Shown here: positions 23,970 to 49,114 of the stretch, one piece after another
Numbering within the stretch: position 1 is the first letter of the stretch
Layout of the letters: each line of letters begins with the position of its first letter
Assembly: GCA_030609965.1 (NCBI GenBank)
Contig: JAUWSQ010000001.1
Span: 105,787 to 169,786, forward strand
Length of the DNA stretch: 64,000 bases
From: Candidatus Fermentibacterota bacterium
GTDB taxonomy: Bacteria > Fermentibacterota > Fermentibacteria > Fermentibacterales > JCC-6
Direction: 5' to 3'
The notes under the pieces: model-generated
The model's database searches: none
Seen by the model: the letters and a program-made list of their open reading frames with translations, nothing else
Told to the model about the DNA's origin: nothing
Translations under genes and position numbers: made by a program

Positions 23970-26414
23970 TTGAGCATGGTACATTCTAAAAAAACAAAGG
24001 ATGAACTTCTAGAGGAACTGTCAGATCTTAAAAAGCAGTTAGCAATTACTAAAGACCAGTGTGGCATCTATCCCATTGATGGATTGAATGCTGAGGAGTG
24101 CATCGATTTTTTCAAGAGCATGGTCGCCGCAATCACAGAGCCGATCCTCGTATTGAATTCCGATCTGAAATGCGTATTTGCTAACAAAAGCTTCTCCGAG
24201 ATGTTCGGAATCGAACCCTCCGGCATCAAGGATGTTTCCGTTTACGATATCGGCAATAAACTTCTTGACCTTAAAGGACTCAGGAACCTTCTTGAAGAGC
24301 TGCTTTCAATTCACAGAGATTTCGACGGGTACGAGGTCAATCTTAGACTGATCAACATAGGTGAACGTACGATGTCTCTTAACGCAACCGATATTCATCA
24401 GGAAAGCAATGCAGAGCGACTCATGCTTCTGAGCTTTTTTGATATTACGGAACAGAAAAAGGCTGAAAAAAAGCAGAAATTAAATGAACAAATGTACAGA
24501 TCCCTATATGAAACATCCCGTGATGCCATCATGACCCTTGAACCTCCTGACTGGTCCTTCACCGCCGGAAACCCCGCCACTATAAAAATGTTCGGATGCG
24601 AAAATGAAGCCGATTTCACCTCAAAGCAGCCGTGGCTTCTTTCTCCTGAGTACCAGCCTGACGGGCAGGTATCCGGCCTTAAAGCAAAAGATATGATCAA
24701 GAGAGCTGTTGAGAACGGATCAAACTATTTCGAATGGATTCACAAACGACTCAATGGGGAAGAATTCCCAGCAACCGTTCTTCTCAGCAGGGTAGAACTC
24801 AAGGGAAAAACGCTTCTTCAGGCAACGGTCCGGGATATCACCGGGCGTAAACAGGTTGAAGACGAACTCGCAATACACCGATTCCACCTTGAAGAAATAG
24901 TCAGAGAACGGACAGCCGAGCTTGAAGAAAGCGAAGGAAAGTACCGCACTCTAGTGGAGCAGAGTCATGATGGTATTTACATCTATGGAAACAACTGTTT
25001 TCTATTTGTCAATGATAGATTATGTGACCTGATGCTGTTCGGCAGAGATGAACTGCTGAAAATGAAATTCTCAGAACTCCTGCATCCCGATGACAGTGGT
25101 ATGGTCAACGAGAATGGGATCATAAAAGAAGGCTTCTCAGATGTTCCAAATGTATTTACCGTCAGGCTGATACGGGGGGATGGTGAGCTAAGGCATATCG
25201 AGTGTTCCGTTCGTAATTTCATCTACAACGGCGAAGATGCAATACTTGGAATTGCAAGGGATATCACAATCCTGAAAAAGCTGGAAGAAGAACAGAATAA
25301 GATCGAGAAACTTGAATCTCTGGGCATTCTTGCCGGAGGTATCGCCCACGATTTCAACAATTTCCTGACAGCTATAATGGGAAACATCTCGCTCGCAAGA
25401 ATGATGGTTGAACCGGGCAGTGATCTGTACGAAATCCTGACAAGCTCCGAACACGCAGCCAGCAAAGCATCCAATCTCCCCAGACAGCTCCTTACATTTT
25501 CCATGGGAGGAGACCCGGTAAAATCAAGTGTATCGATTCGCAGAATCCTCAGAGACTCAGCCGATTTCGCACTGAGCGGCTCCAATGTAACAGCTGTGTA
25601 TTCAATTGCAGATGACCTTCAACAGGTTGTGGTTGACCGAGAACAGATCGGGCAGGTCATCAGTAATATTGTTATCAATGCGCAACAGGCTATGCCGGAT
25701 GGAGGCAGTGTCAGCATCAGCGCAGAGAACACCCTGATAGCCGAGAACAATCCTTTAGCAATTCCCGAAGGCCAGTACGTTAAAATCGCGATAAAGGATG
25801 AAGGCTGCGGTATTGAAGAGAATCACCTCAACAGAGTATTCGATCCATTTTTCACAACAAAGCAGAACGGAACAGGTCTCGGTCTTGCGACTTCATTTTC
25901 GATCATCAGAAAACACAGTGGTCATCTAAAGGTCAATACGAAAGCAGGCGAAGGCAGTACATTTACTATCTACCTTCCTGCTGACCTTTCTTCTGATACC
26001 TCCGGTACTCATGAAACCGGACCGGAAAAGCTCTCAGGAGGAAATATCCTTGTAATGGATGATCAGGAAATGGTAAGAGATACCATTATAACGATGCTCA
26101 ACAGGCTTGGTTACAAAGTCGGCAGCGCGGCGGACGGAAGTGAAGCCATCTCTAAGTATTCAGCCGCCATGAACACTTCAGAACCTTATACCGCGGTAAT
26201 TCTGGATCTTACAATTCCTAACGGCATGGGAGGAATGGAAACCATGAAAGAATTGCGGAAAATAGATCCGGATGTAACAGCAATTGTATCCAGCGGGTAT
26301 TCTAACGCACCGGTTATGGCTGATTACTCCCTGTACGGCTTCGCAGGAGTAATGATGAAACCATATTCAATCACTCAACTGTCAGATCTACTGCGGGAAA
26401 TCTTTGATGAATAA
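23970..26414 (+). CDS. Cytoplasmic hybrid histidine kinase (3 PAS-HisKA-HATPase-REC)
   Basis: LAGGIAHDFNN, FFTTKQNGTGLGL, VMDDQE...ILDLTIP. Confidence 0.92.
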   Translation: MSMVHSKKTKDELLEELSDLKKQLAITKDQCGIYPIDGLNAEECIDFFKSMVAAITEPILVLNSDLKCVFANKSFSEMFGIEPSGIKDVSVYDIGNKLLDLKGLRNLLEELLSIHRDFDGYEVNLRLINIGERTMSLNATDIHQESNAERLMLLSFFDITEQKKAEKKQKLNEQMYRSLYETSRDAIMTLEPPDWSFTAGNPATIKMFGCENEADFTSKQPWLLSPEYQPDGQVSGLKAKDMIKRAVENGSNYFEWIHKRLNGEEFPATVLLSRVELKGKTLLQATVRDITGRKQVEDELAIHRFHLEEIVRERTAELEESEGKYRTLVEQSHDGIYIYGNNCFLFVNDRLCDLMLFGRDELLKMKFSELLHPDDSGMVNENGIIKEGFSDVPNVFTVRLIRGDGELRHIECSVRNFIYNGEDAILGIARDITILKKLEEEQNKIEKLESLGILAGGIAHDFNNFLTAIMGNISLARMMVEPGSDLYEILTSSEHAASKASNLPRQLLTFSMGGDPVKSSVSIRRILRDSADFALSGSNVTAVYSIADDLQQVVVDREQIGQVISNIVINAQQAMPDGGSVSISAENTLIAENNPLAIPEGQYVKIAIKDEGCGIEENHLNRVFDPFFTTKQNGTGLGLATSFSIIRKHSGHLKVNTKAGEGSTFTIYLPADLSSDTSGTHETGPEKLSGGNILVMDDQEMVRDTIITMLNRLGYKVGSAADGSEAISKYSAAMNTSEPYTAVILDLTIPNGMGGMETMKELRKIDPDVTAIVSSGYSNAPVMADYSLYGFAGVMMKPYSITQLSDLLREIFDE

Positions 26415-34261: not shown

Positions 34262-34530
34262 TCAGAGACCGCCTTTCCGGAATACTGATACTCTATAAGT
34301 ATATTTCCATTTGATATTTTGTCAAAAACTTCATACTCATTTCTGACAACGACTCGGCTGATGTTCTTGCTGCTTCGGAATTTACAATCCGCGAACTCAT
34401 GAGAATTATACTGTCTGGAAAAACACCCGGAGGAATTTGTAATACTGTTGCATTTAGGAACAGGCTGGAACATAATGTAGATATAGAAATAGCGAATTAC
34501 CGGAATCCGGTTTTCATCATGGGAGATATA

Positions 34531-35712
34531 ATGCAAAGGATATACCTGGATCACAACGCTACAACACCTCTCCATCCTGAGGTAAAAAAGGCAATAATCG
34601 AATCAATCGATGTCTTCGGAAACCCTTCCAGTCTTCATGAGGATGGAAGGCTGGCCAGAATTCTTATCGAGACGGCCAGAGAAAAAGTTGCCGCACTTAT
34701 TAACGCTGATCCGGAAGAGATCATGTTCGTTGGAAGCGGTTCGGAGGCAAATAATACTGTACTTTCACTGGTAAGCTGCAGCGGAGCCCGCTGCAGCCTG
34801 CATTCCCCTGCTGACAGTGATCTAATAACATCGACCATAGAACACCCATGTATCCTTGAGACGTCAAAGTGTCTTGAGAACAGGGGAACAAAAGTCTGGC
34901 GCGTAGGTGTGGATAACAGAGGTCTTGTGAAAATGGACGATCTTGAACAGGCGGTGTCTGAGAATACATCACTTGTGTCCATTATGATGGTGAACAACGA
35001 AACAGGTGCGATTCAGGATGTTGAAAGAGCCCTGAAAATAGCTCATAACTCAGGAGCCATGTTCCATACAGACGCAGTGCAGGCGGTTGGTAAACTGCCC
35101 CTGGATGTCAAAAAGCTGGATGTTGACTTCCTGACGATATCAGCCCACAAGATCTATGGCCCCAAGGGGGTCGGAGCTCTATACGTAAGGAAAGGTACTC
35201 CCTTCTGTCCACTTATCAGAGGCGGCCACCAGGAGATGGGTCGGCGTGCAGGTACCGAGAACACGCTTGGCATTGTAGGCCTCGGAAGAGCGGTTGAACT
35301 CCGTGCCTCCGAGATGGATACCGAGACTGAACGCCTGGCACAGCTCAATAGATTGCTGAGGGAGGGAATAGAAAGCCGGATAGAGAACATCCATTTCAAC
35401 AGTGATCCTGCATGCTGCCTTCACTCTACAATCAACGTTTCCTTTGAAGGGGTTGAAGGGGAGGCACTTCTTCTGTACCTTGATTATGAGGGGGTGGAAG
35501 TTTCAACAGGTTCCGCATGCGCATCAGGATCACTCGACCCATCACATGTCCTCCTGGAGATGCATCTGCCTGTTGAATTTGCGCACGGCTCCCTGCGAAT
35601 GAGTATGGGAAGATCAACAACCCGCGAAGAGATTGATCATGTTTTGGATGTTCTTCCTGATATCGTAAATAAATTGCGCAGAATGTCTACCGTTTACGGA
35701 GGTGCACGATGA
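34531..35712 (+). CDS. nifS: Cysteine desulfurase (NifS/IscS group I)
   Basis: IYLDHNATT, HTDAVQ, SAHKIYGPKG, STGSACASG; ATG 34531 with GGGAG RBS. Confidence 0.93.
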   Translation: MQRIYLDHNATTPLHPEVKKAIIESIDVFGNPSSLHEDGRLARILIETAREKVAALINADPEEIMFVGSGSEANNTVLSLVSCSGARCSLHSPADSDLITSTIEHPCILETSKCLENRGTKVWRVGVDNRGLVKMDDLEQAVSENTSLVSIMMVNNETGAIQDVERALKIAHNSGAMFHTDAVQAVGKLPLDVKKLDVDFLTISAHKIYGPKGVGALYVRKGTPFCPLIRGGHQEMGRRAGTENTLGIVGLGRAVELRASEMDTETERLAQLNRLLREGIESRIENIHFNSDPACCLHSTINVSFEGVEGEALLLYLDYEGVEVSTGSACASGSLDPSHVLLEMHLPVEFAHGSLRMSMGRSTTREEIDHVLDVLPDIVNKLRRMSTVYGGAR

Positions 35713-36329
35713 ACTCCTGGCTTTACACGGATAAGGTCAAAGATCACTTCATGAACCCCAGGAACATCATGTTCGACGATGCGGAGTTCCAGTACGATGC
35801 CGAGGGCAGGACCGGCAATATAAAGTGCGGTGATGAGATGATCTTCTATTTAAAGGTTGATCCTGATACTCTCACGATTACTGATTGCAGATGGAAGACT
35901 TTCGGATGCGCAAGCGCCATAGCCAGCACATCGGTTCTATCTGAAATGATAAAGGGCATGACCCTCGAAGATGTCCGCAATATTTCAAACGTGGATATTA
36001 TGAACGAACTGGGCGGGCTTCCGGATAACAAGGTTCACTGCTCCGTGCTTGGTGATAAGGCCCTTGAGGAAGCCATCAACAACTACTACCGCGAACATGG
36101 TATGTTCGAAAAGGTCCGCGATACCGAATCAAGGATAGTCTGCGAATGTCTGAATGTCTCTGAGGAGGAAATCGAGCATGCCGTGCTTGAGGGAGCTCGT
36201 AATTACTATCAGCTTCAGGAGATGACAAAGATAGGTACCTCCTGCGGCAAGTGCTCCGAGGACGCGAAGGAACGACTTTCATTTTTCCTGGACAAACATG
36301 TCGGTATTAAGGTATGTGTTCAACCTTGA
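35709..36329 (+). CDS. nifU: Fe-S scaffold IscU/NifU with BFD-like [2Fe-2S] domain, no Nfu domain
   Basis: KCGD, FGCASA, VHCS; then VCECLNV...GTSCGKC. Confidence 0.88.
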   Translation: MNSWLYTDKVKDHFMNPRNIMFDDAEFQYDAEGRTGNIKCGDEMIFYLKVDPDTLTITDCRWKTFGCASAIASTSVLSEMIKGMTLEDVRNISNVDIMNELGGLPDNKVHCSVLGDKALEEAINNYYREHGMFEKVRDTESRIVCECLNVSEEEIEHAVLEGARNYYQLQEMTKIGTSCGKCSEDAKERLSFFLDKHVGIKVCVQP

Positions 36330-37785: not shown

Positions 37786-39084
37786 TTGATAATTCTTTTC
37801 ATAATCGGCATATTAGAAGTTGAAATTTACTGGAGGAAACTCAAAGTGGAAAATAATAATAATTTCTGTTTCGGTGAGGATATAAATCCCGTTATAACCC
37901 TCATGAAAAACGCACTCGGGGATATACTTTATTCACTTGATATATCTCTTGATAATCCCAAGGATGTCTACAAAAAACTGAAGATAGATAAAAAGCTTGG
38001 TTGGAAGATCTACAACGTAGCTTGTGAGGTTGATCCTTTCATTGCAGCACAGTTCGTACCGGGCAAAGCTGCCTGCACGAGTTTCATGAAATGCTGCAGA
38101 AAACTCGGTACACCTAAAAAACTCCTTCAGAAAGCAAAGGAAGCCTGCCAGCAATTCGACCTGATGGTCGAAAAGCACGCTGACAGCAGGAAGGAATTCG
38201 ACCTGATGCTGCTGTCCTGTTCTGATAAGGGTCGGTCCAAAGCCTACCTGTCTCAGCAGAAGGCAGCCTTTACCGCTTACAGCCATCTTCTCGGAGCGCA
38301 GGCCGGCACACAGCTGTGTACATGGATTTTTGCTCCGTCAGCCAGCGGTGAATTTCATGATATAGCAAGCATCAGGGGCTTCATCGATTTAAGAAGGAAC
38401 AGGCCTAATGTCCCCTGGCTGCTTGAATGGGCTTACTTCACAGATGACGACAACGTTCCGAAAAGCATGGTAAAGGTCAAACCAATTGAAAAAAGAGAAC
38501 CTGATAAGAGCAACCCCATGGGTGTGCCGTTTTACTACAGTTTCTGTTCTGATCCTCTGCCGAGTGTTATCAGTTCCCGCAAACGGGCTGGAAGAACTGT
38601 ACATGAACTTGAGGAAGCTCCTATCGGCAATACAGAGTCAATTACTTGCATTACTGGTCAGATAACAAGGGATGTCTTCAAAAGCTACAGAACCAGAGAG
38701 GACAGGTACAGAGAGCTTCTGGTCAGAGCAAGAACGCCGGTGGAAAGGCTTGTTTTCGACCAGATAGTTCACCTGGATCTGATTGGTCCCCTTGAACCTG
38801 AGCTTTTCATATTCGGTGAGTTTACTGGATACGACTGGTCATTGCCGGCGGAATACCGAAATCCCCACAGCTGCCTCCCTATGGATATTTCCATTCACAA
38901 ACTTGGAATGGGGATAAAGGCTACGTATACACCATACATACAATGGTACACTGACATGATAGAGGATGTCTTCCACAGACTTCAGTGGGATCCTGCAAAG
39001 TTCAGGACCTACAGGGTTGTTATCGACTATCCCGTTATCCCTTCGACAATCAACATGAGATCACTGCTCCCGGAGAAACAGTAA
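37786..39084 (+). CDS. Uncharacterised cytoplasmic protein (possible N-terminal HTH); start may be GTG 37846
   Basis: 432-aa ORF; LKIDKKLGWKIYNV segment; no recognised catalytic motif. Confidence 0.75.
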   Translation: MIILFIIGILEVEIYWRKLKVENNNNFCFGEDINPVITLMKNALGDILYSLDISLDNPKDVYKKLKIDKKLGWKIYNVACEVDPFIAAQFVPGKAACTSFMKCCRKLGTPKKLLQKAKEACQQFDLMVEKHADSRKEFDLMLLSCSDKGRSKAYLSQQKAAFTAYSHLLGAQAGTQLCTWIFAPSASGEFHDIASIRGFIDLRRNRPNVPWLLEWAYFTDDDNVPKSMVKVKPIEKREPDKSNPMGVPFYYSFCSDPLPSVISSRKRAGRTVHELEEAPIGNTESITCITGQITRDVFKSYRTREDRYRELLVRARTPVERLVFDQIVHLDLIGPLEPELFIFGEFTGYDWSLPAEYRNPHSCLPMDISIHKLGMGIKATYTPYIQWYTDMIEDVFHRLQWDPAKFRTYRVVIDYPVIPSTINMRSLLPEKQ

Positions 39085-39159
39085 CCTGAAGCATTCTTAG
39101 TTACGCTCCCATGATCAGTGCAGAATGCACCGGGAACATTGAGATTCGAGATTATTCAG

Positions 39160-41259
39160 CTAGCCCGGTTTCAAATCGCTTACGATATTCTGAATACACT
39201 CGCTCAATCCAATGATGTTGAAAGGCTTTTTGATAATACCCTTGAATCCATAATCCTTAAAATTGGCCATGATTGGGCTGTTGGAGTATCCGCTTGAAAC
39301 TATAGCCTTTATGTCCGGGTCTATTTCAAGCAGCCTTCTTATAGTTTCCTGTCCCCCCATGCCTCCCCGTATTGTAAGATCAATTATGACACCATCAAAT
39401 GGGTCTCCCGATTCCAGCGCAGCCTTAAAAAGCTCTATAGTTTCGTTCCCGTCACTGGCAGTGACAGCACTGAATCCCAATTTATCCAGCATCTGGAAGG
39501 TTACCTTCCTCACAGATTCATCATCATCCATTACCAGGATTTTCCCCTGGCCTCTTTCTGGATACTCCTCTTTTTCATCTACTTCGTAAGGTTCTTTTTC
39601 AGAAGCGGGAACATAGATAGTAAACATGGTACCTAAGCCGATTTCAGATTCCACGGTAATCAAACCATCATGCTTCTTGATAATTGAATATGTGGTTGCG
39701 AGACCAAGACCGCTTCCTCCGTCTTTTGTTGTGAAATAAGGGTCGAATATGTTCTGAAGATCATTTTTGGATATTCCAACTCCCTGGTCTTTTATGATAA
39801 GCTTCACATACCTTTTCTTACTGAGTGGAAGTGACTTAACGTCATGTTCATCAATGTTATCCGCCTCTATAGAGAAAATACCCCCGTTCGGCATCGCCTG
39901 ATTCGCATTAATGGTTAGATTCTCGATCACCTGCCTGAACTGCACCACATCAATGTCGACAGGCCACAGATCAGCAGGCAGCGAATAATCACACATTATA
40001 CTTGAACCACTGAGGACAAAATTGACGGAATCGGTAATAATCTCAGCCAGCTTTGTAGGTTGGGTCAGCGGAACACCGCCCTTGGAGAAAGTAAGCAGCT
40101 TCTGTGTCAGTTCTTTCGCCCTGTTTGATGCACTATGGGCATTTTCAAGAAATTGGTATTCTTCACTTTCGCTATTGGAGTATGCGATGGCAAGTTCAAT
40201 ATTTCCAAGAATACCGGTAAGAATATTATTGAAATCATGAGCGATTCCACCGGCAAGGATGCCCAGGGATTCAATTTTCTGCACCTTGATAAGTTCTTTC
40301 TCCATCTTCTTCCGCTCGGAAATATCAATGGCAACTATCTGAACTGCAGACCTGTCCTGGAAGATGAAGGGAATTACCACAATCTCCGTATCAACGGTGG
40401 AACCATCGATCCTTCTGAATCTTGCCTCCATGAGGGAAGTTTCATAATGATTCTCCATTGTTTCCCTGATCATCGTCCTGATTCCATCCTGGTCCTCTGG
40501 ATGAATAAACTCCATCGACGGATGATCGATTACTTCTTCAGGATTTTCAGCACCAAGCAGTTTTAACCCGGCATTATTTGCAAATGCTATTCGACTGTCG
40601 CAGCAGACAAAAATGGATTCCGGTGAAGATTGAACAAGATTACGGTATCTTCCCTCTGATTTCAGCAATGCAATTTCAGCTTCTTTTCGGCTGACAATAT
40701 CAATGAAAACACTCAGCGAACTCTCCAGAACATCACGGTCCTTCTCTTCAAATGGACGGCGGAACACCCTGTCCTCTGTTGCATTACCCAGAAGGAGGGC
40801 TATATCATCATGATGGTTGAAGGTCCAAAGCAGATAGGGTGACGAAATGGCTTCTCGAAGGGAATTAACCGTTGAATCCGGCTGGGTCTCTGAATTTACA
40901 AACATGAAATCAGGGATGGAATTACTGAATCTGTGAAGATTCCTCGGAGTCATTGCCAGCTCTGAGCCAAGAAAACACTTCGGTATGAATTTATTGGATG
41001 CCTTGTCATATCGAAGAATCATAGCTCGGTCAACCGACATTGTACTGAGGATTACCTGGAGAAATCGTCTCTGAATCTGATCTATGGTTACATCATGATT
41101 GATAAGCTCATAGGTCCTGCGAATAAGAGCTGTTGTAGTGCGGGAACGCTTGGCATCACCATGAATACAGGTTAGTTCCCTCTGTAATTGCAGCACACGC
41201 CCACCCAGATCATCTGACTGTCGACGGTAAAAGTCTTTTTCAGTTTTCAGGTCATCCAT
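39160..41259 (-). CDS. Cytoplasmic hybrid histidine kinase (coiled coil-GAF-like-PAS-HisKA-HATPase-REC)
   Basis: LAGGIAHDFNN, FTTKDGGSGLGL, VMDDDE...IIDLTIRG; no TM segment. Confidence 0.92.
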   Translation of the reverse strand: MDDLKTEKDFYRRQSDDLGGRVLQLQRELTCIHGDAKRSRTTTALIRRTYELINHDVTIDQIQRRFLQVILSTMSVDRAMILRYDKASNKFIPKCFLGSELAMTPRNLHRFSNSIPDFMFVNSETQPDSTVNSLREAISSPYLLWTFNHHDDIALLLGNATEDRVFRRPFEEKDRDVLESSLSVFIDIVSRKEAEIALLKSEGRYRNLVQSSPESIFVCCDSRIAFANNAGLKLLGAENPEEVIDHPSMEFIHPEDQDGIRTMIRETMENHYETSLMEARFRRIDGSTVDTEIVVIPFIFQDRSAVQIVAIDISERKKMEKELIKVQKIESLGILAGGIAHDFNNILTGILGNIELAIAYSNSESEEYQFLENAHSASNRAKELTQKLLTFSKGGVPLTQPTKLAEIITDSVNFVLSGSSIMCDYSLPADLWPVDIDVVQFRQVIENLTINANQAMPNGGIFSIEADNIDEHDVKSLPLSKKRYVKLIIKDQGVGISKNDLQNIFDPYFTTKDGGSGLGLATTYSIIKKHDGLITVESEIGLGTMFTIYVPASEKEPYEVDEKEEYPERGQGKILVMDDDESVRKVTFQMLDKLGFSAVTASDGNETIELFKAALESGDPFDGVIIDLTIRGGMGGQETIRRLLEIDPDIKAIVSSGYSNSPIMANFKDYGFKGIIKKPFNIIGLSECIQNIVSDLKPG

Positions 41260-42470
41260 TATTCCCGTTCATTGTTGAACACAGTAAGTATTCCTGTCCA
41301 GTTCAGTGGACGGCTGCGCCCAAGAAACGGTGCAATCTCCATACCAGAATAAAAACCCAGCAGTGGGATTTCCTTCCTGATCGACTTTCTGATAATATTA
41401 GCTTCCTCTATTCTAGAACTGCTGAAATCACGTGTTCTCCCGGCACAGTCAATATAGAAGGCCAATTCGTGTTGCCCTTTTCTTATACTTCCAAGTAATT
41501 CTTCTGTTCCTCTCTTCGTAGATTCCAGCATAAAGTTGTTGTTCCTTGTCATTATCTGAACTACTGTTCCCTTCTGGAAATCAGTATCGAGGAGTGTTAT
41601 GCTGCCATCTTCGGTATTTGAATTTATTATAAGGCTGTTTACATACACCTGTTCGCTGTAGGGAGCGAATTGATCACCATACTTTTTACCCAGTGTGATT
41701 GTGAACGGGATTATCACTTCTTGTCCAAATTCACTATCCCCCCCCAGCATTTCATGGAAGACATCTGTCGCCCTCCGTCCGTTGAGTTCATAGACCACTG
41801 GACCTTCTATTCTGGTAATCTCCATAAATGAGCTTACGGGAGTGCATCCATGCATAATTGTTGTATATGGAGAAAGAGTTCCAGGCATAATTAATGCAAG
41901 AACTGAATGTTCAACAACCTCAGAACCGCCGAAAAGAAAACAAGGAAAGAAATTGAAATCACCTACCAGACCGGCACCTATAATATTGAGGGGTTTCTTG
42001 TCCAGAACTGTGTACAGACCATCCAGAAGGCTGCTGCCAGTGAATAGCTCCAGCGGTGGCATCGATTTAAGCTGGTCGAAAAGGATGAGAACTGTATCAC
42101 CTTCTTCTGCCTGGTTATTCAATTCCAGCGCAAGCTCTTTCCCTGCGTTAAATTCACCAGAATCCATATTGATGAGAATTGCGTGCGGTTCTGGCACCGG
42201 GGTCGTAAATACGGCTAAACCGCATTCATAACCGGTATATCCAAGAAGATTATTCGTGATTACTCCACAGACAGACCCGCCATAAATCTTTACATTACCA
42301 AGTTCAGCTCTAATACCCTTCAAAAGTTCTTCAGGATCTTGCCTTCCGCCGCAGAATGCCATTACCCAGGAAACCGATTCACCATCTTGCATCCGCTGCT
42401 TTGCCATACTCGCCGCTTCACGGCCGGCCAGTTCAGATTCAGTACTCTGGCTATTTCCAATGTATGCCAT
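41259..42470 (-). CDS. Stand-alone FIST (NosP-like) sensor protein
   Basis: YGGSVCGVI, IIGAGLVGD, IMHGCTP, VYELNGRRA, FYIDCAGR, LLGFYSGMEI; stop overlaps the kinase ATG. Confidence 0.88.
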   Translation of the reverse strand: MAYIGNSQSTESELAGREAASMAKQRMQDGESVSWVMAFCGGRQDPEELLKGIRAELGNVKIYGGSVCGVITNNLLGYTGYECGLAVFTTPVPEPHAILINMDSGEFNAGKELALELNNQAEEGDTVLILFDQLKSMPPLELFTGSSLLDGLYTVLDKKPLNIIGAGLVGDFNFFPCFLFGGSEVVEHSVLALIMPGTLSPYTTIMHGCTPVSSFMEITRIEGPVVYELNGRRATDVFHEMLGGDSEFGQEVIIPFTITLGKKYGDQFAPYSEQVYVNSLIINSNTEDGSITLLDTDFQKGTVVQIMTRNNNFMLESTKRGTEELLGSIRKGQHELAFYIDCAGRTRDFSSSRIEEANIIRKSIRKEIPLLGFYSGMEIAPFLGRSRPLNWTGILTVFNNERE

Positions 42471-42562
42471 TTTTCATAATCCTAACGCTTGTTGCTGAAA
42501 ATGGGCGAAACTCCTTCTCGGTAATCGAAGATGTCAAATCAGGGCTTAGTCCCAATTCAAAA

Positions 42563-44047
42563 CTAATTCAGACGATATTTCCTATGCTTCCTTTCAAGGT
42601 TCCATAAACGATATCGGTTATAACCAGTCAGTTTGTAGATAATATCTCTTCGCATGATGTTAGTCCATACGGGGTTTTTTATTCTGATCAGAGAATATAT
42701 TCTTTTAAGAGTCCTGGCAAGGACGGATTCGTCGGTATTGTCCTGAAGGTTGATATAGTTGCAGTGGGTAATGACTTCCCTGTTGATAAGGTAAAGCATC
42801 CTTTCAGTGCTTACACCTTCCGGCTGGAACCAGAATGGCCGCAAAATGTCGGTGTCCTCCGGTATTCCGCCCTTCTCAAGGGCATAGCTGTAAAGTGGTG
42901 AGCCGGGAAATATTCTTATTCCACTGGTAATGAAAACCAGATCCTTTTTTCTGATATTTTCTTCGATGAAATCGAATGTTTCTTTTATTGTAGTCTCATC
43001 TTCTCCTGGACCGCCGAAAAGAAAGTACCAGACTACAGGTAAATCAACTTTTCTTAAGCATTCTGCCGCTCGCCGTACATCATCAAGAGTAAAATTCTTC
43101 CCAAGGGATTCAAGCATTCTCGCGGAACCGGATTCGGGGGTACAGGATATTTCCATGAAATTAGCAGCCTTCATCAGGATGGCAAACTCTTCGGTAACGT
43201 TCGCGGGGTTGATTCCCATTGTGTTGAAGGATACCCGTATATTCCGCTTCACTATTTCCCTGCAGATCGCCATCGCATGATCCAGTGGAATGTTGAAAGT
43301 GGAGTCTGTAAATTCAATAACCAGAGGATTGCAGTTAGCAACAATATCTTCAATCTCGTCTACAACCGACTCAGGATCTCTCAGTCTGTACTGCCGTCCT
43401 TCTATGTTGTTGTAGACGCAATAGCTGCATTTCAGAGCGCATCCTCTTTTAGTCTGAACAGGATAGGGTGTATAGTTGAGCCGGTACTTACCCCAGTCTA
43501 CCCACCTGTAAATCCTGGGCGGAGCCAGTTCGTCCAGTTCTTTGATCCTGATTATTGGATTCCTGATTATTCTGTTACTTTTTCTGTACAGCAAACCATT
43601 TACTGTTGAAACATCAGCTTCCCGTTCCTGGTACCGGACAAACTGCACCATTGCATCCTCACCCTCACCGGATATTGCGTAATCCACACCAAGATAATCC
43701 ATTATCCTTTCAGGCATCACGCTGACTGCTGAACCTCCGATCACCAGTGGCGCGCTGCTCGATTTTTTGACTGGTTCTATTACCTTCTCAATTACCTCTT
43801 CCAGATAAAAGAATGGATCCTGCTGATCAACATTATCAATATTCCGTATGGAAATACCTACAAGATCAGGCTGATACTGATCGATACAGGCAGTTATCAT
43901 GCTGGCGGGGTTGTCAGAATAGAGAATGTCCAGAAGCTGAACCTCGTATCCCGATTTCTCAAGGCCCGAAGCGGTGTAACATGCCCCGATCGGCAGTACC
44001 GGCCACGGATGTCTTTCTCTGTTGGATGAAATCAGAAGAACCTTCAT
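42563..44047 (-). CDS. B12-binding radical SAM protein (lipid-biosynthesis-associated type)
   Basis: PDLVGISIRNIDN B12 domain; QTKRGCALKCSYC; FTDSTFN; YFLFGGPGE. Confidence 0.88.
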   Translation of the reverse strand: MKVLLISSNRERHPWPVLPIGACYTASGLEKSGYEVQLLDILYSDNPASMITACIDQYQPDLVGISIRNIDNVDQQDPFFYLEEVIEKVIEPVKKSSSAPLVIGGSAVSVMPERIMDYLGVDYAISGEGEDAMVQFVRYQEREADVSTVNGLLYRKSNRIIRNPIIRIKELDELAPPRIYRWVDWGKYRLNYTPYPVQTKRGCALKCSYCVYNNIEGRQYRLRDPESVVDEIEDIVANCNPLVIEFTDSTFNIPLDHAMAICREIVKRNIRVSFNTMGINPANVTEEFAILMKAANFMEISCTPESGSARMLESLGKNFTLDDVRRAAECLRKVDLPVVWYFLFGGPGEDETTIKETFDFIEENIRKKDLVFITSGIRIFPGSPLYSYALEKGGIPEDTDILRPFWFQPEGVSTERMLYLINREVITHCNYINLQDNTDESVLARTLKRIYSLIRIKNPVWTNIMRRDIIYKLTGYNRYRLWNLERKHRKYRLN

Positions 44048-44050
44048 AGG

Positions 44051-46021
44051 TTATCTTAACCTCATTTCCGGATAGTAACTGCTAAGAATGTCTTTCATTT
44101 CTGCTGACAGGTTGTCAAACAGGCTGTTTCCGCTTTTGCTGAGATTCGTGATGTAGTCCGTGCAGTACAGTTTTCCCTGTTTAGGCAGCTCACTCAGAAT
44201 CCGCTCTTTTATCTGCCTGCGATCGCTAACATAGAAGTATTCAAACAGAACAGGATTTCTTTTCTGAATTTCCTCCGCGCTGGTTTCGAGGCAAAGATGC
44301 ATCGGCACCGCAGGAGCTCCATTAACTGAATCGCAACGCTTGACTTCTCCTATTCGATTGAAACCGAATTCCTTCTGATAGTATTTACTGTGATGGGGAT
44401 TTATCATCATGCAGTAATCTGTGCAGCCCAGGATGTCATGACTAAGTATAAAGGCATGCTTGAAGAGAGACATCATGATGTCTCTGCTTTCCACAGGCGA
44501 CATGGATGCATCCAACGCTAACCCGGACAGTTCACATATAAGGGACTTCTCGGTGCGGATTCTACCAATCTCATCTCCGAACAGCTTTTCGATAGGGAGC
44601 CCCGAGCAGTTTTCCCTGATTACGGTAAGCGTGCCTGAAACCCTCCCTTTCCTTTTTACGACCATAGGATAGCTTACAGGGAGAAGGTTATGATAACGGA
44701 TTCTCAACAGAGAGGGGTCAATTCTCTGAAGGCCGGATACGAGGTAGTTGTCATAGATTAAGTGGAATACTTCTTTCATATCATCTATGGTGTCAGGGAA
44801 CATCGGATACGATAATATTTCATTTTCAGTTCCACTGTTACCAGCTGGTTCAGACAGGCAGTAGGTACTTTCTATCTCCGATGGACATGAAAAGGGTTTC
44901 GTGATGGTTTTCTTTAATCCGGCAGTTTTTTCGTGCAATACCGCCAAGGATGTACGTGCTCTCGCGATATACGAATAGAGAATCGCTTCGAGTGATCCTT
45001 TGAGTTCATGTGGAGATTGATTGCAGCCGGAACAGATGGAACCGCTCATAAACATTTCCTTGTTTTCCATCAGCGTATCAATTGAGTCGTACATGATGTT
45101 ACCGTTAGGGCACCGTACAGTCTGATCGTTACAGCAAATTGAACTTCCGTCTGCGGCAATGAAGAAGTTTGCGTTCCATAGACAGGGGAATCTGAAACTC
45201 CTTATAAGATCCGCAATCTCTCCTGCGTTGACGAAGAACCGCTTAAGCACCAATTTCATCCTGATTTTCACATCATTAACGATACGATCGTTGTAGTGTT
45301 TGAACAGGTCCTTGTACATATCGACTCTGATAACGGAACTGCGTACAAGACCGGATCGGTTGCTGATTGCAGGGAAGAGAATCATTTCGATTTCCTCAAG
45401 TCCGTTCCTGTTAGCTATACTCGTCAGAAAGTCCACTGTTTCAGGAAAATCACTTCTTATTATCTCTGTTTCCGGAGGTGAGATGTGAAAACAGAGCTTC
45501 GAAAGATACCCCTCTGCTCTCAGCATCATCGCTTTCTCTATATTGGGCAGCACCACGGACAGCATAGATGCCCCTCTACTCGAATCACCGGCCATAATCG
45601 CACCGTAGGATTCTGGCTTAATTGTTGGAAGGGATATTATCAGAGTCATTGTGTTCTCAGTGAATGAATCCTCAATCCCGGGTAGATGCAGTCGTGAACC
45701 ATTAGTGACTATTGATACTTCGGGTGATGGAATGCCGGGAAAATCCCATTCTCTGAGCATCGAACCGAACATTCCAATCCTGCTTCTGAACTCAGGATGA
45801 AGTGTTGGTTCACCGTCGCCGGAATTGGTGATATAGCGTATGTACACTCCGGAACGAGCGGATTCCCTGATACGCCGCATAAGAGTTTTTGTCACTTCGA
45901 ATGGCTGATATTCCTTCGGACCGTTGTACGTTGCTTTATTTATACTGCATAATCTGCAGGAATAGTTACATATGCCATGAACCAGACTGTTGTTTATTGA
46001 TATAGCTCGATGTGTTTTCAT
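44051..46021 (-). CDS. Radical SAM/twitch domain fused to a FeeM-like N-acyl amino acid synthase (GNAT) domain
   Basis: CNYSCRLC, SGDGEPTLHP, FPC..DGSSICC..CSGC; C-terminal VFHLIYDNYL..GTLTVIRENCSGLP..CELSGLA..MINPHHSKYY..FGF..G....SVNGAPAV. Confidence 0.75.
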   Translation of the reverse strand: MKTHRAISINNSLVHGICNYSCRLCSINKATYNGPKEYQPFEVTKTLMRRIRESARSGVYIRYITNSGDGEPTLHPEFRSRIGMFGSMLREWDFPGIPSPEVSIVTNGSRLHLPGIEDSFTENTMTLIISLPTIKPESYGAIMAGDSSRGASMLSVVLPNIEKAMMLRAEGYLSKLCFHISPPETEIIRSDFPETVDFLTSIANRNGLEEIEMILFPAISNRSGLVRSSVIRVDMYKDLFKHYNDRIVNDVKIRMKLVLKRFFVNAGEIADLIRSFRFPCLWNANFFIAADGSSICCNDQTVRCPNGNIMYDSIDTLMENKEMFMSGSICSGCNQSPHELKGSLEAILYSYIARARTSLAVLHEKTAGLKKTITKPFSCPSEIESTYCLSEPAGNSGTENEILSYPMFPDTIDDMKEVFHLIYDNYLVSGLQRIDPSLLRIRYHNLLPVSYPMVVKRKGRVSGTLTVIRENCSGLPIEKLFGDEIGRIRTEKSLICELSGLALDASMSPVESRDIMMSLFKHAFILSHDILGCTDYCMMINPHHSKYYQKEFGFNRIGEVKRCDSVNGAPAVPMHLCLETSAEEIQKRNPVLFEYFYVSDRRQIKERILSELPKQGKLYCTDYITNLSKSGNSLFDNLSAEMKDILSSYYPEMRLR

Positions 46022-46026
46022 TATTC

Positions 46027-47459
46027 AGATGCCTCCGTCAGAACCCAGCCATTATATAGCAAGCCGGAATTGATTATTTTCATTCCAACAGATATTTTTC
46101 TCTCTAAGCTGGAAATACCTCCAGTTCGACCTGATTTGATCCCGGATTGTGCGCAAACAGCCCTCAATTATGGCAGAGAGCGTCTCTTCTGAGTTCCAGT
46201 GTACCCGTTGCCTTACATATTCACATGATTTCTCACTCCTGGCCGCCTGAAGGATATTCCATCCCGCTATCTTAAGTAGTATCACATTGAAGACGCTCGG
46301 CTTACCTCGAACTCGAAGCCTGCTCATACCCGTTCGCTGTTTGATTCCGCTGTTGGTCGCTTCTATGCCGGCACGTTTCCGATACTTCTCCTGAAAGGCA
46401 TCGGTCTTCTCATAACGACGGCACTTAGCCAAACGAAGTTCTTTGCTGGTAAATTCAAAGCGACAATCGTTACGCTTTCTCTCTATAGGACATTCGCTGC
46501 GATGTTCGCATGAACTGCATACTGTAATCGGCATTACGGTTCGTGTTATTTCCTTCTCGGGATCGTACTCGGACTTAAGCGGTTCATGACCAGCGGGACT
46601 GGCCAGATTCATTCCGTCACCTGAAGCATTCTGCACTTTATCATCGTGCCATAGGATGTATCAGCAAGCATCTGCTCGGGAAGATTATCCGACTCCCTGA
46701 GTTCCTCGCGTACTTTCTCAACTGCGTCCGTGTCCTCAACTCCTCCGGAAGAGATTCATATACCTTCTTGTTATGACGTTTCACCCGAGTAAGGAATTTC
46801 TTGAATGTTACATCAATCATACGAGTGCGGCCGTATATGGCCATATTGCTGAATACATGCGCGGAATCAAGCCGCTGCTCAGTGATGATCTGATCCAATA
46901 GTTCAACAAGACGCATTGTTACATCGTGCATGACCTGCCTTGCAGGCTCATTTTCTCTGAATATCCTCTGATAACGTTCGATGGTTCGGGTACTCATGCT
47001 CCGGGCTCCGGGGGTCAGATTAAGCGCGTACCAGATATCTGTGTGAAACATATACGCCTGCGCAGCCTGTTCAATTGTCCAATCAAGGAACTCACTAATA
47101 AAGATCAGCCCAGCCATCGAGTAAAGTTCCCTGGTCGGTCGTCCTGTTGCTGGATGGAACTTGCCTGCGATGGCCTGTACCGGTAACAATTCGAGAATGA
47201 CATGTCGAAACAGTCCCTGCCATCCCTCTTGGATAATCTTGGTTGCAAGTAACCTGAACAGGCGCTCAAATGGGTCAAACAGGTGTTTTTGTCCTGGGTC
47301 CTTAATGTGCCGCATAATGAGTCTATATCCTTATTTGATAAGTGATTATCATAGTTAATAGGCACATCATTATCAATGGCCAAAACAACACTTATATTGC
47401 AACATAATATAACTTCACAAGGTTTCTACAAATGGTTTTGACTTTTGTCGGTGTCGTCT
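46027..47459 (-). mobile_element. Decayed IS1182-like insertion sequence with imperfect terminal inverted repeats and 4-bp ATTC target duplication
   Basis: Ends AGATGCCTCCGTCAGAA and reverse-complemented AGACGACACCGACAAAA (12/17 identical); ATTC at 46023-26 and 47460-63. Confidence 0.75.
46052..47315 (-). pseudogene. IS1182-family DDE transposase pseudogene
   Basis: GRPTRELYSM, QRLDSAHV, LADTSYG (in a third frame), CSSCEHRSECP, YRKRAGIEATNS; an internal deletion near 46740 and a frameshift near 46645. Confidence 0.85.
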
Positions 47460-47659
47460 ATTCTGCTTAATGTAAATGAAACAATTTCAGTTAAAGCATA
47501 TAATACTACTAAGGGATATATTATCAACATTCATTCCCGGTGATCATAATCAGAAGATATTGTCGTTAGTCCTTGCAGATACTATGCCGAATTAATTCAG
47601 ATCTTCTGAATTCAAGCAGGTGGTGTTTCTGAGTACTGTATATTATTAACTGGAAGAGA

Positions 47660-49114
47660 TTAATACGACTCCGGTTTTACAAATCCTGAGGTGAATTTAG
47701 AAATTAGTTTTGCAAATTGAATCAATTCCGGTTCGCTCCAATATGGCCCGATTACTTGAACTCCCACCGGTAATCCATCTTCACCAATCCCCAGCGGTAA
47801 ATTCATTCCGGGATGTCCGCTTGCATTAAAACAAGCTACATAGGGCCAGGCATATTTAATATAGGTGTGCTCTTTTTCGTCGTAATGAATCGGAGTGCCA
47901 GTTTTGCACCGTTTATAGGCTGGGCCTATACTCATCGGACACACGAGAAAATCAAATTTTTCAAAGTACTGTTCCCATTCATTCACAATACCCGCTCTGA
48001 TACCCATTGTCTCTGAGTAATGAATGAAACTGTCTTTAAATCCTTTATTAAACTCCCAATGAAATTTTTCCATTCCTTTTAGAAAACCATTCTTTATTTC
48101 CATTTTCATGAACGGTCTGATAAACCGTGGGACATCCTGGGAGACCAATTGAGTGAACAATCTCATATAAAGAGAAAGCGAGCGTTCGTGCAAATTATCT
48201 CCGGGGCCGGTATTTTCAGTTATACAATTATTCTGAGTAAGTTGATCGATAAAATTCCGGATCACCAATTTGGTCTGGATACCTGTCTCATAACCAGGCC
48301 AGCCGTCAACCCAGGCTACTTTGTAATCACCTAATGCTTTACAATCCGCTTTTCTCCATTCAATTCTGGGCGTATTTCTATCGCTTTTATGCGGTCCCAG
48401 GATTGTTTTCCATACCAGTTCAAGATCTTCCGGGTTTCGTGCCATGGGACCAGCCTGGGCCATGTGCAGAGCAAAGCCTTTGTTCCCTTCGGGTATAGGT
48501 ACCATTCCATGTCTGGGCACTGTGTCCTCAGTAGGCTTCATTCCCCAAAGACCACAATAATTAGAAGGAATGCGTATCGAGCCACCGAAATCGCAACCTA
48601 CTTCTATGGGAATCATACCGGACGCAAGAGCTGCGGATGCGCCGCCACTGCTTCCGCCGGGTGAAAACGCCAGGTTGTATGGGTTCTTGCATTCGCGATA
48701 TATATCGCCACTAACCTGATAATCTGCCAGGTTTCTGGACACATTGGTTTTTCCAAGAATAACAGCACCTGCTTTTCTGAGCCTGTCGACGATTACAGCA
48801 TCCTCCGTGGCTGTCCAGTCTTTCAGTCTGCTGAAATTTAACGTGGATTTAGTTCCTTTCACCCAATACTGCTCTTTGACGGTCATGGGTACGCCGTGAA
48901 GTGGTCCTCTGAACTTTCCCTGGGCCGTTTCAGCATCGCACCGAGCGGCCGTTTTCAGTGCTTCATCCTCTACTAATATTACAACCGCATTCAATGTTGA
49001 ATTGTGTCTTTTAATTTGCTCAAGATGATCTTTCACTATTTCCGTTGAAGTCGCTTTTCGATTCCTTACAAATTCAGCTAGTTCTATCGCTGATTTGTAA
49101 ATAAAATCACCCAT
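47660..49114 (-). CDS. Amidase signature family protein
   Basis: LHGVPMTVKE, ILGKTN, PGGSSGG, DFGGSIRIP. Confidence 0.92.
   Translation of the reverse strand: MGDFIYKSAIELAEFVRNRKATSTEIVKDHLEQIKRHNSTLNAVVILVEDEALKTAARCDAETAQGKFRGPLHGVPMTVKEQYWVKGTKSTLNFSRLKDWTATEDAVIVDRLRKAGAVILGKTNVSRNLADYQVSGDIYRECKNPYNLAFSPGGSSGGASAALASGMIPIEVGCDFGGSIRIPSNYCGLWGMKPTEDTVPRHGMVPIPEGNKGFALHMAQAGPMARNPEDLELVWKTILGPHKSDRNTPRIEWRKADCKALGDYKVAWVDGWPGYETGIQTKLVIRNFIDQLTQNNCITENTGPGDNLHERSLSLYMRLFTQLVSQDVPRFIRPFMKMEIKNGFLKGMEKFHWEFNKGFKDSFIHYSETMGIRAGIVNEWEQYFEKFDFLVCPMSIGPAYKRCKTGTPIHYDEKEHTYIKYAWPYVACFNASGHPGMNLPLGIGEDGLPVGVQVIGPYWSEPELIQFAKLISKFTSGFVKPESY

Follow-up and report, generated by a model that had tools for sequence, protein, structure and literature searches.

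A radical-SAM/FeeM enzyme cassette linked to a FIST-kinase sensor pair in Fermentibacterota: a candidate make-and-sense system

Gene content of the locus

We analysed a four-gene operon in a 64,000-nucleotide stretch of DNA (hereafter the window) from Candidatus Aegiribacteria, an uncultured anaerobe of the phylum Fermentibacterota whose genome is 81% complete. The operon combines a fusion of a radical S-adenosylmethionine (rSAM) domain with a FeeM domain (gene 1), a B12-binding rSAM enzyme (gene 2), a predicted FIST sensor protein (gene 3) and a hybrid histidine kinase (gene 4), and we interpret it as a candidate accessory cassette for biosynthesis and sensing. The open reading frames (ORFs) lie on the minus strand at 44051-46021, 42563-44047, 41259-42470 and 39160-41259 in operon order, and encode proteins of 656, 494, 403 and 699 aa, respectively, with successive spacings of 3 nt, 92 nt and a 1-nt overlap. 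These coordinates bear out the four co-oriented genes and the spacings given in an initial annotation of this DNA, and Pfam analysis likewise supports its domain calls (rSAM-FeeM, B12-rSAM, FIST and hybrid kinase). The genes and their subdivisions are as follows.

44051-46021, minus strand: gene 1, fusion of an rSAM domain (twitch-like, one predicted auxiliary cluster) to FeeM (Pfam, NCBIfam, invariant cysteines, AlphaFold2 (AF2) model, Foldseek)
44912-46021, minus strand: rSAM domain of gene 1 (residues ~1-370), followed by a disordered linker (residues 374-399)
44051-44794, minus strand: FeeM domain of gene 1 (residues ~410-656)
42563-44047, minus strand: gene 2, class B B12-binding rSAM enzyme, TIGR04072-like (Pfam, NCBIfam, orthologues)
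41259-42470, minus strand: gene 3, predicted stand-alone FIST_N+FIST_C sensor protein (Pfam, AF2 model, family invariants)
39160-41259, minus strand: gene 4, soluble hybrid histidine kinase (Pfam)
40660-41259, minus strand: unclassified N-terminus of gene 4 (residues 1-200), followed by PAS (204-315), HisKA (335-393), HATPase_c (437-552) and REC (574-687) domains (Pfam)

Conserved linkage of the enzymes and the sensor

Co-occurrence was counted across 70 species-level Fermentibacterota genomes. Both rSAM-FeeM and FIST were present in 18 genomes and both were missing from 51; FIST occurred without rSAM-FeeM in one genome (G016, 73% complete), and no genome carried rSAM-FeeM alone. The two genes are adjacent in 17 of the 18 genomes that hold both. 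Their distribution is patchy: they occur in 15 of the genus's 26 genomes, in 3 of the family's other 34 and in 0 of 10 elsewhere in the phylum. The gene order is kept though the cassette occupies different chromosomal sites in the two clades, A and B, that are defined below.

Beyond these genomes, a metagenome-assembled genome (MAG) labelled Desulfobulbia carries rSAM-FeeM, FIST and kinase in the same order at 46-50% identity; the flanks in this MAG are only 31-47% identical to those of the window's genome, which places it in a second phylum. A further locus, L110 (6001-13212; European Nucleotide Archive (ENA) contig_58513), contains co-directional genes for FIST, a PAS kinase, an FAD_binding_4 oxidase, a FeeM::cNMP-binding fusion, a REC protein and a REC-GGDEF protein, downstream of three further histidine kinases. 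The FeeM of L110 belongs to a different lineage, linked to the same module of FIST and kinase N-terminus.

This gene order recurs far beyond chance, being present in about 17 genomes at species level within the phylum and again in another phylum. A lipo-amino-acid pathway is very probably coupled here to a dedicated FIST-kinase sensor. The initial annotation had named conservation of the synteny as a check on its proposal, and the order proved to be conserved, and not unique to this genome.

Recombination of the cassette

Phylogenetic analysis of the kinase core (residues 201-699) and the flanks defined clade A, comprising G000, G010, G011, G014, G017 and G023 (support 100/99), and clade B, comprising G013, G019 and G024 (support 100/100). 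Approximately unbiased (AU) tests rejected clade A for FIST (p = 6e-9), the kinase N-terminus (p = 0.002), FeeM (p = 6e-4) and B12-rSAM (p = 2e-6), and left it unrejected for the rSAM domain (p = 0.098). Sliding-window analysis located crossovers near rSAM residue ~280 (G023) and near kinase residue ~190 (G023, G010, G011 and G014). By these sequence comparisons, the block running from FeeM through B12-rSAM and FIST to the kinase N-terminus recombines as a cassette, with a history unlike that of the kinase core and the flanks.

A divergent version of the block, which we call type I, occurs in this genome and in G017, while most congeners carry type II. Type I FeeM domains are 62% identical between this genome and G017 and 52-57% identical to the others, and the type I kinase N-termini show the same pattern (62% between the two, 57-59% to the others). 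Type I FIST is 56-61% identical to the others, there being no FIST at the G017 locus. This divergence is found despite flanks that are 75-92% identical to those of type II species. Synteny, co-occurrence, the second phylum and the co-inherited recombining block together uphold the initial annotation in treating the enzymes and the FIST-kinase pair as one unit.

The rSAM-FeeM enzyme

Pfam analysis of gene 1 detected FeeM (PF21926) at residues 417-576 with 121.8 bits against a cut-off of 27, and a weak Radical_SAM match at residues 16-143 that includes the motif CNYSCRLC. In the AF2 model (pLDDT 89.6, pTM 0.83), Foldseek matched the C-terminal domain best to chains of 2G0B (FeeM), with TM scores of 0.79-0.82 and an E value of 1e-11, and more weakly to LasI (1RO5). 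The nearest structures to the N-terminal domain were the SPASM/twitch enzymes SuiB, anSME and MoaA, which represent dehydrogenase and crosslinking types; anSME is an rSAM dehydrogenase. By profile and predicted fold, the C-terminal domain is a FeeM-type N-acyl amino acid synthase, for which acylation is the predicted reaction. It is the sole FeeM in this genome, and the family is rare, with a match in 1 of 14 control genomes.

Among 112 homologues, C18-x3-C22-x2-C25 and SGDGEPTLHPEF, the SAM-binding GGE-like motif, are nearly invariant, and four additional cysteines (C280, C296, C330 and C333) are invariant. A full SPASM domain has seven cysteines that hold two clusters, whereas a twitch domain holds one; the count of four auxiliary cysteines, not seven, therefore fits one auxiliary cluster and a twitch-like domain. 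The rSAM family is tiny and sharply bounded: in a set of 1.84 billion representative proteins only 34 clusters score at E<1e-10, and a gap separates them from the generic rSAM matches. None of its members carries a functional name, and some homologues bear the label 'AslB' at JGI. A sequence search of the rSAM domain against PDB chains returned nothing useful, and when the FeeM domain by itself was used in a word-indexed search, near relatives were the only matches.

At 44-60% identity, the rSAM family extends over Fermentibacterota, Planctomycetota, Kiritimatiellae, Victivallales and Desulfobulbia/Desulfomarina, and also occurs in Spirochaetes, FCPU426, Goldbacteria and Chitinivibrionales. 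FeeM is fused to the rSAM domain or encoded by the next gene in most loci, and this arrangement spans at least four phyla, with examples in Fermentibacterota, Planctomycetota, Victivallales, Kiritimatiellae and Desulfobulbia. Even within the genus of the window, some species have the fusion and others have two separate genes.

The B12-rSAM enzyme and the three-enzyme module

Gene 2 contains the Pfam domains B12-binding and Radical_SAM, together with the SIRNIDN motif reported by the initial annotation, here as GISIRNIDNVD. Among NCBIfam models it scores highest with TIGR04072, 'lipid biosynthesis B12-binding/radical SAM protein' (321 bits, E 1e-95, below the cut-off of 360), with BzaD second; by profile score, gene 2 is a sister lineage of TIGR04072 and not a member. 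Its relatives in the PDB are TsrM, CysS, TokK and OxsB, and it is probably a tailoring C-methyltransferase. Orthologues are 37-41% identical to gene 2, above any paralogue in this genome.

Orthologues of the B12-rSAM enzyme adjoin or are fused to rSAM-FeeM in phyla of the Planctomycetes-Verrucomicrobia-Chlamydiae (PVC) group (Victivallales, Planctomycetota and Kiritimatiellae), with adjacency in loci L036, L043, L045, L066 and L083. A single 1215-aa ORF in the Planctomycetota MAG RA.bin114 (L052, 8447-12094) unites B12-binding, rSAM, rSAM and FeeM domains; a divergent sigma-54 activator precedes this triple fusion and a FabF-like ketosynthase follows it, as such a ketosynthase also follows the enzyme genes in L043. 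The fusions, the adjacency and the ketosynthase neighbour argue that the three enzymes form one pathway acting on a fatty-acyl substrate. The three enzymes are functionally coupled. The B12-rSAM enzyme is an optional member: G011 and G023 carry truncated copies, and L026 has none.

The FIST-kinase pair

Gene 3 consists of FIST_N and FIST_C (Pfam) and scored 18.9 bits (E 6.6e-4) with the NosP model NF041558, whose cut-off is 450. It retains the FIST family invariants H207, K263, Y339, C342, R345, E378 and W391. The AF2 model (pLDDT 92.2) matched the FIST domain of eukaryotic FBXO22 best, followed by chorismatase and the 'Toblerone' amide hydrolases. The PDB yielded no FIST structure from bacteria, and a FIST sequence search against PDB chains gave nothing useful. 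The kinase encoded by gene 4 contains no membrane segment.

A word-indexed search returned 946 FIST homologues, at 45-51% identity in Omnitrophota, Chloroflexota, Desulfobacterota and others. In each of the seven contexts examined from beyond Fermentibacterota, a histidine kinase gene comes directly after FIST, and the pairing of FIST with a co-cistronic kinase was found in all of the more than 20 loci examined. Across the pairs from other phyla, the first ~200 residues of the kinase are 36-43% identical to those of gene 4, while the cores fall to as low as 22-31%. This shared N-terminus behind FIST across phyla argues that FIST and such a kinase form an old two-gene sensor module.

Invariant residues of the kinase N-terminal domain are Y11, G19, F66, N122, N159, E162 and D163. 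Profile searches against Pfam and the PDB assigned the domain to no family, with only an insignificant GAF hint, and hhalign found no similarity between it and FIST (probability <=1.2%). Nor did hhalign relate either of them to the ~420-aa N-terminus of PVC sigma-54 activators, or relate FeeM or the kinase N-terminus to the 311-aa protein that precedes rSAM in loci of FCPU426, Goldbacteria and one unclassified MAG (both <=1.2%). The domain is a candidate FIST-docking or ligand-binding domain.

Regulators beside the enzymes in other phyla

In at least 10 loci, a ~780-aa sigma-54 activator with an unclassified ~420-aa N-terminus is divergently transcribed, and sigma-54-like -24/-12 elements lie 5' of the synthase in 5 of 11 loci. 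A MAG of CALGYR01 and Kiritimatiellae MAGs of SLKS01 and SLMC01 each contain six to eight or more paralogous rSAM(-FeeM) copies, and each of the six copies examined in the CALGYR01 MAG (which includes L048, L053, L055, L056 and L060) has its own divergent ~780-aa sigma-54 activator. Several CALGYR01 copies are flanked by ~900-aa proteins, with faint PcRGLX-like matches in the related locus L023.

Other regulators take this position elsewhere. An NtrC-type regulator, a REC protein and a seven-transmembrane (7TM)-GAF kinase accompany the loci of FCPU426, Goldbacteria and one unclassified MAG. In Victivallales, an extracytoplasmic function (ECF) sigma factor is encoded within the enzyme operon or next to it, and L066 adds a FecR-type anti-sigma protein; in Desulfomarina a dCache kinase and a sigma-54 regulator lie beside the enzymes. 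That the enzymes have so often acquired a sensor of their own speaks for either sensing of the product or tight control by a cue.

State of the locus and its surroundings

The remaining features of the locus are as follows.

39058-39087, minus strand: terminator-like hairpin 3' of the kinase gene, likely end of the transcription unit
46019-47463, minus strand: decayed IS1182-like element, outside the system (Pfam, NCBIfam, GAATA duplication, empty site in L111)
47464-47659, minus strand: native upstream region with a sigma-70-like promoter (comparison of the upstream regions of six congeners)
47660-49114, minus strand: amidase-signature enzyme, possible accessory gene with a weak link to the system (Pfam Amidase, 300 bits)

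Upstream of the operon, none of the Fermentibacterota loci showed a sigma-54 promoter; there is instead a sigma-70-like promoter, TTGATA-16-TATTAT (47527-47500), conserved in congeners. The 92-nt gap before the FIST gene holds several weak promoter-like matches and no terminator-like site. The insertion sequence (IS), which comprises two transposase fragments (46052-46636 and 46641-47315) and is marked by a GAATA duplication, lies immediately 5' of the ATG of rSAM-FeeM. It places 1.44 kb between the operon and its native promoter region, and its end provides a GGAGG before that ATG.

The closest relative, L111 (an ENA contig), has 92% protein identity, an empty IS site and a GTG start, and its gene order matches: amidase, rSAM-FeeM, B12-rSAM, FIST and kinase. 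In comparison with L111, the ratio of nonsynonymous to synonymous substitution rates (dN/dS) was 0.17-0.36 for the operon genes and 0.07-0.13 for the flanks, which indicates that the operon genes are under purifying selection, somewhat relaxed. The synonymous divergence (dS) was 0.10-0.17 for the operon, 0.08 for the amidase and 0.24-0.57 for the flanks; the lower values indicate that the block including the amidase shares a more recent ancestor than its surroundings. Co-oriented and directly upstream only in this genome and in L111 (528-1982), the amidase-signature gene is absent from that position in other congeners. The amidase-signature family includes fatty-acid amide hydrolases, and one may speculate that this member could hydrolyse the acyl amide.

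No regulator genes were found in the locus flanks. About 3 kb past the kinase, on the opposite strand, lie congener-conserved genes for a NifS-like cysteine desulfurase and a NifU-like scaffold (34399-36329), which are probably housekeeping Fe-S assembly genes outside the cassette. A paralogous PAS hybrid histidine kinase lies ~13 kb off (24897-26408; ~817-aa open frame), with 43% identity to the kinase core and with synteny conserved in clade A genomes. The clade A flanks (secreted peptidases, NifS/NifU) were judged to be unrelated neighbours, as were those of clade B (lytic transglycosylase/LysM-like, TPR-like), the latter judged by eye with no family search.

Proposed function and alternative explanations

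In the pathway that we propose, the FeeM domain would join a fatty acyl group, from acyl-acyl carrier protein (acyl-ACP) or acyl-coenzyme A (acyl-CoA), to an amino acid. The fused twitch-type rSAM domain would then carry out an O2-independent radical step on the N-acyl amino acid, most likely an oxidation or desaturation that would be the anaerobic counterpart of the flavin desaturase in the Tyz and NasY pathways to N-acyl-dehydrotyrosine, and the B12-rSAM enzyme would add optional tailoring, probably C-methylation. A membrane-permeable acyl amide or a pathway intermediate would be the ligand of FIST or of the kinase N-terminus. FIST would dock on the dedicated N-terminal domain of the kinase and set its autophosphorylation, as NosP does with NosK, NahK and VpsS, and the phosphate would pass to the kinase's own receiver domain and on to a further relay.

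Collectively, we give a probability of about one half to the reading of the locus as a self-contained accessory cassette, in which a three-enzyme pathway is combined with a coupled cytoplasmic sensor and a make-and-sense function is favoured. The narrower proposition, with the product of the pathway as the ligand sensed by FIST or by the kinase N-terminus, is a good possibility, if short of even odds, and we infer both the ligand and the direction of control. The domains, the operon and the functional unit of the initial annotation stand, while the detection of the product by the FIST-kinase pair, which it had also put forward, is only plausible. More tentative, and on balance rather unlikely, is the view that rSAM-FeeM is an O2-independent autoinducer synthase of anaerobic bacteria, FIST with the kinase N-terminus the intracellular receptor for its radical-tailored acyl-amino-acid product, and types I and II pherotype-like specificity alleles exchanged between species.

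Several observations weigh against a make-and-sense cassette. FIST-kinase pairs at 45-51% identity occur without the enzymes in 5 of the 7 contexts from other phyla, and in G016, so that the ligand there cannot be the product of this pathway. To our knowledge, every FIST sensor characterised so far (NosP) binds heme and NO. Physical linkage might by itself explain why FeeM, FIST and the kinase N-terminus segregate together; given that linkage, and since crossovers are expected in the best-conserved stretches, co-segregation by itself is no proof of co-adapted specificity. The 81%-complete genome yielded no Hpt domain, and the locus offers no response regulator, Hpt or autoregulated promoter through which the kinase would act on its own operon. 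The chemistry of each enzymatic step is a prediction. In G017, FIST has been lost from the locus and the kinase is split; together with the B12-rSAM breaks in two congeners and the IS described here, these losses imply a dispensable system, which in this genome may be silent.

Among the alternatives, a regulated effector pathway is a substantial possibility, with the odds nevertheless lying against it. The FIST-kinase pair would here resemble NosP in sensing a separate cue (NO, heme, redox state or a free amino acid), and the enzymes would only be co-expressed with that pair or controlled by it. Their product would not be the ligand but an effector, for example a surfactant, a membrane aminolipid or a lipo-amino acid with antimicrobial or biofilm-modulating activity. 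The wide occurrence of the FIST and kinase-N-terminus module without enzymes fits this explanation, as do the known FIST sensors, which are heme/NO sensors regulating an adjacent kinase (PMC12570481, PMC6769237), the invariant His207 and Cys342, which could ligate a cofactor, and the known N-acyl tyrosines, which are antibiotics or biofilm modulators (PMC7293339). The sigma-54 activators and ECF sigma/FecR pairs found elsewhere are also typical of regulated biosynthetic clusters. Within the phylum, however, FIST without the enzymes is confined to 1 of 19 genomes, an incomplete one, and the NosP model falls far below its cut-off (18.9 of 450 bits). Moreover, with a generic cue one would not expect FeeM, FIST and the kinase N-terminus to form deeply divergent alleles that are inherited together, and a hybrid kinase without local DNA-binding output would be an odd dedicated regulator.

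The other two explanations are far less probable. Peptide or protein maturation, in which rSAM and B12-rSAM would modify a ribosomal peptide or protein (cf. SuiB, anSME and PoyC) and the GCN5-related N-acetyltransferase (GNAT)-fold domain would acylate it to give a lipopeptide among the ribosomally synthesized and post-translationally modified peptides (RiPPs), is very unlikely. The rSAM domain does find its best structural matches in SuiB and anSME, which modify peptides and proteins, RiPP clusters commonly encode B12-rSAM C-methyltransferases, and some homologues carry the 'AslB' label; yet the operon leaves no space for a precursor gene (gaps of 3, 92 and -1 nt, and a ~200-nt upstream region that holds the promoter), and no recurrent small ORF, protease, exporter or RiPP recognition element (RRE) gene was found in 58 loci. 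The four auxiliary cysteines instead of the seven of SPASM, an acyltransferase domain closest specifically to FeeM, and a ketosynthase neighbour that points to fatty-acyl chemistry likewise speak against it, and we rejected the RiPP reading for want of a precursor gene and of RiPP accessory genes. Scarcely credible, finally, is mere neighbourhood, that is, unrelated enzyme and FIST-kinase operons lying side by side through shared ancestry in one genus. Most examples do come from one family of one phylum, and the 92-nt gap with its weak matches could hold an internal promoter, but the joint presence and absence over 70 genomes with a patchy distribution, the linkage at different chromosomal sites in clades A and B, the recurrence in a second phylum and in L110, and the co-transfer of both halves in one recombination tract all count against it.

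If the make-and-sense reading is true, the cassette would represent a new family of O2-free small-molecule signal synthases, would provide a non-heme ligand class for the widespread, poorly understood FIST domain, and would imply chemical communication in Fermentibacterota, Planctomycetota, Kiritimatiellae and Victivallales, for which our literature searches found no report. Were the autoinducer view also correct, FIST would gain a second ligand class besides heme/NO, Fermentibacterota would possess cell-cell signalling, and the sigma-54 activators and ECF/FecR pairs would be receptors in the PVC phyla. The two divergent cassette types would offer a natural specificity-swap experiment. Even under a regulated effector pathway, rSAM-FeeM(-B12) would be an uncharacterised, compact three-enzyme route to new lipo-amino acids, encoded as one polypeptide in one organism.

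Comparison with known systems

The closest parallels to the enzymes are FeeM, NasY and TyzA (the fee cluster, the stieleriacines), in which a FeeM-fold acyltransferase is likewise accompanied by a redox tailoring partner that acts on an N-acyl amino acid. In TyzACB, which makes the acyl-oxazolones of M. tuberculosis (PMC10404671), and in NasY (PMC12479983), an O2-dependent flavin desaturase and a ThiF-like cyclase tailor N-acyl tyrosine, and the products of known FeeM-type pathways are bioactive lipo-amino acids (PMC10404671, PMC12479983, PMC7293339). In contrast to the nitroreductase-family flavin desaturase and ThiF-like cyclase of those systems, the partners here are an rSAM/twitch domain fused to the synthase and a B12-rSAM enzyme; neither a nitroreductase-family desaturase nor a ThiF-like cyclase was detected by Pfam in the operon, and none recurs in 58 related loci. 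The hosts here are also mostly known as anaerobes, and the genes are predicted to be co-transcribed with a sensor kinase pair. We propose that the rSAM domain is a functional analogue only of the Tyz/NasY flavin desaturase, and rSAM-FeeM(-B12) appears, by this analogy, to be an anaerobic analogue of the O2-dependent Tyz/NasY chemistry. A literature search for FeeM together with radical SAM found no description of such a pairing, in agreement with the initial annotation, which had not recognised the system as described.

For the sensor, the NosP pairs with NosK, NahK and VpsS provide the precedent of an accessory FIST protein that binds a cytosolic, often hybrid, kinase encoded in the same cistron and controls how far it autophosphorylates (PMC12570481, PMC6769237), and the NosP-kinase pair of V. 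cholerae feeds the quorum-sensing phosphorelay (PMC6769237, PMC12570481). As in those pairs, a stand-alone FIST_N+FIST_C gene here lies just before, and is translationally coupled to, a soluble kinase without a classical input domain. Gene 3 differs in being a non-orthologue of NosP by its model score, and the kinase in having a dedicated, unclassified 200-residue N-terminus. Moreover, the pair described here is joined to biosynthetic genes, and the operon lacks a cyclic di-GMP response regulator.

The agrBDCA system of staphylococci and the comQXPA system of Bacillus use modified-peptide signals and membrane kinase sensors. In both, the synthase and the sensor half of the kinase form a divergent allelic block between conserved anchors, incongruent with the species tree, and the block described here resembles them in this respect; types I and II may, from their sequences, be inferred to form specificity groups. 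The synthase and the putative receptor genes are linked and co-inherited here, as in a synthase-receptor locus. In contrast to agr and comQXP, an acyl amide would be the candidate signal here, FIST and a kinase domain share the role of a cytoplasmic sensor, and the operon contains no cognate response regulator.

A further likeness is to the N-acyl amino acid synthase of PEP-CTERM/exosortase systems, a FeeM/LuxI-like acyltransferase that stands beside the dedicated sensor PrsK and the sigma-54 regulator PrsR and has been proposed as an autoinducer-like synthase. The PVC relatives of rSAM-FeeM similarly adjoin sigma-54 activators, whereas the PrsK-PrsR system has no rSAM partner or FIST and is tied to exopolysaccharide and protein-sorting loci. 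Taken together, the superfamilies and the logic of a synthase beside a sensor are known, while the enzyme family, its fusion partners and its link to FIST are new.

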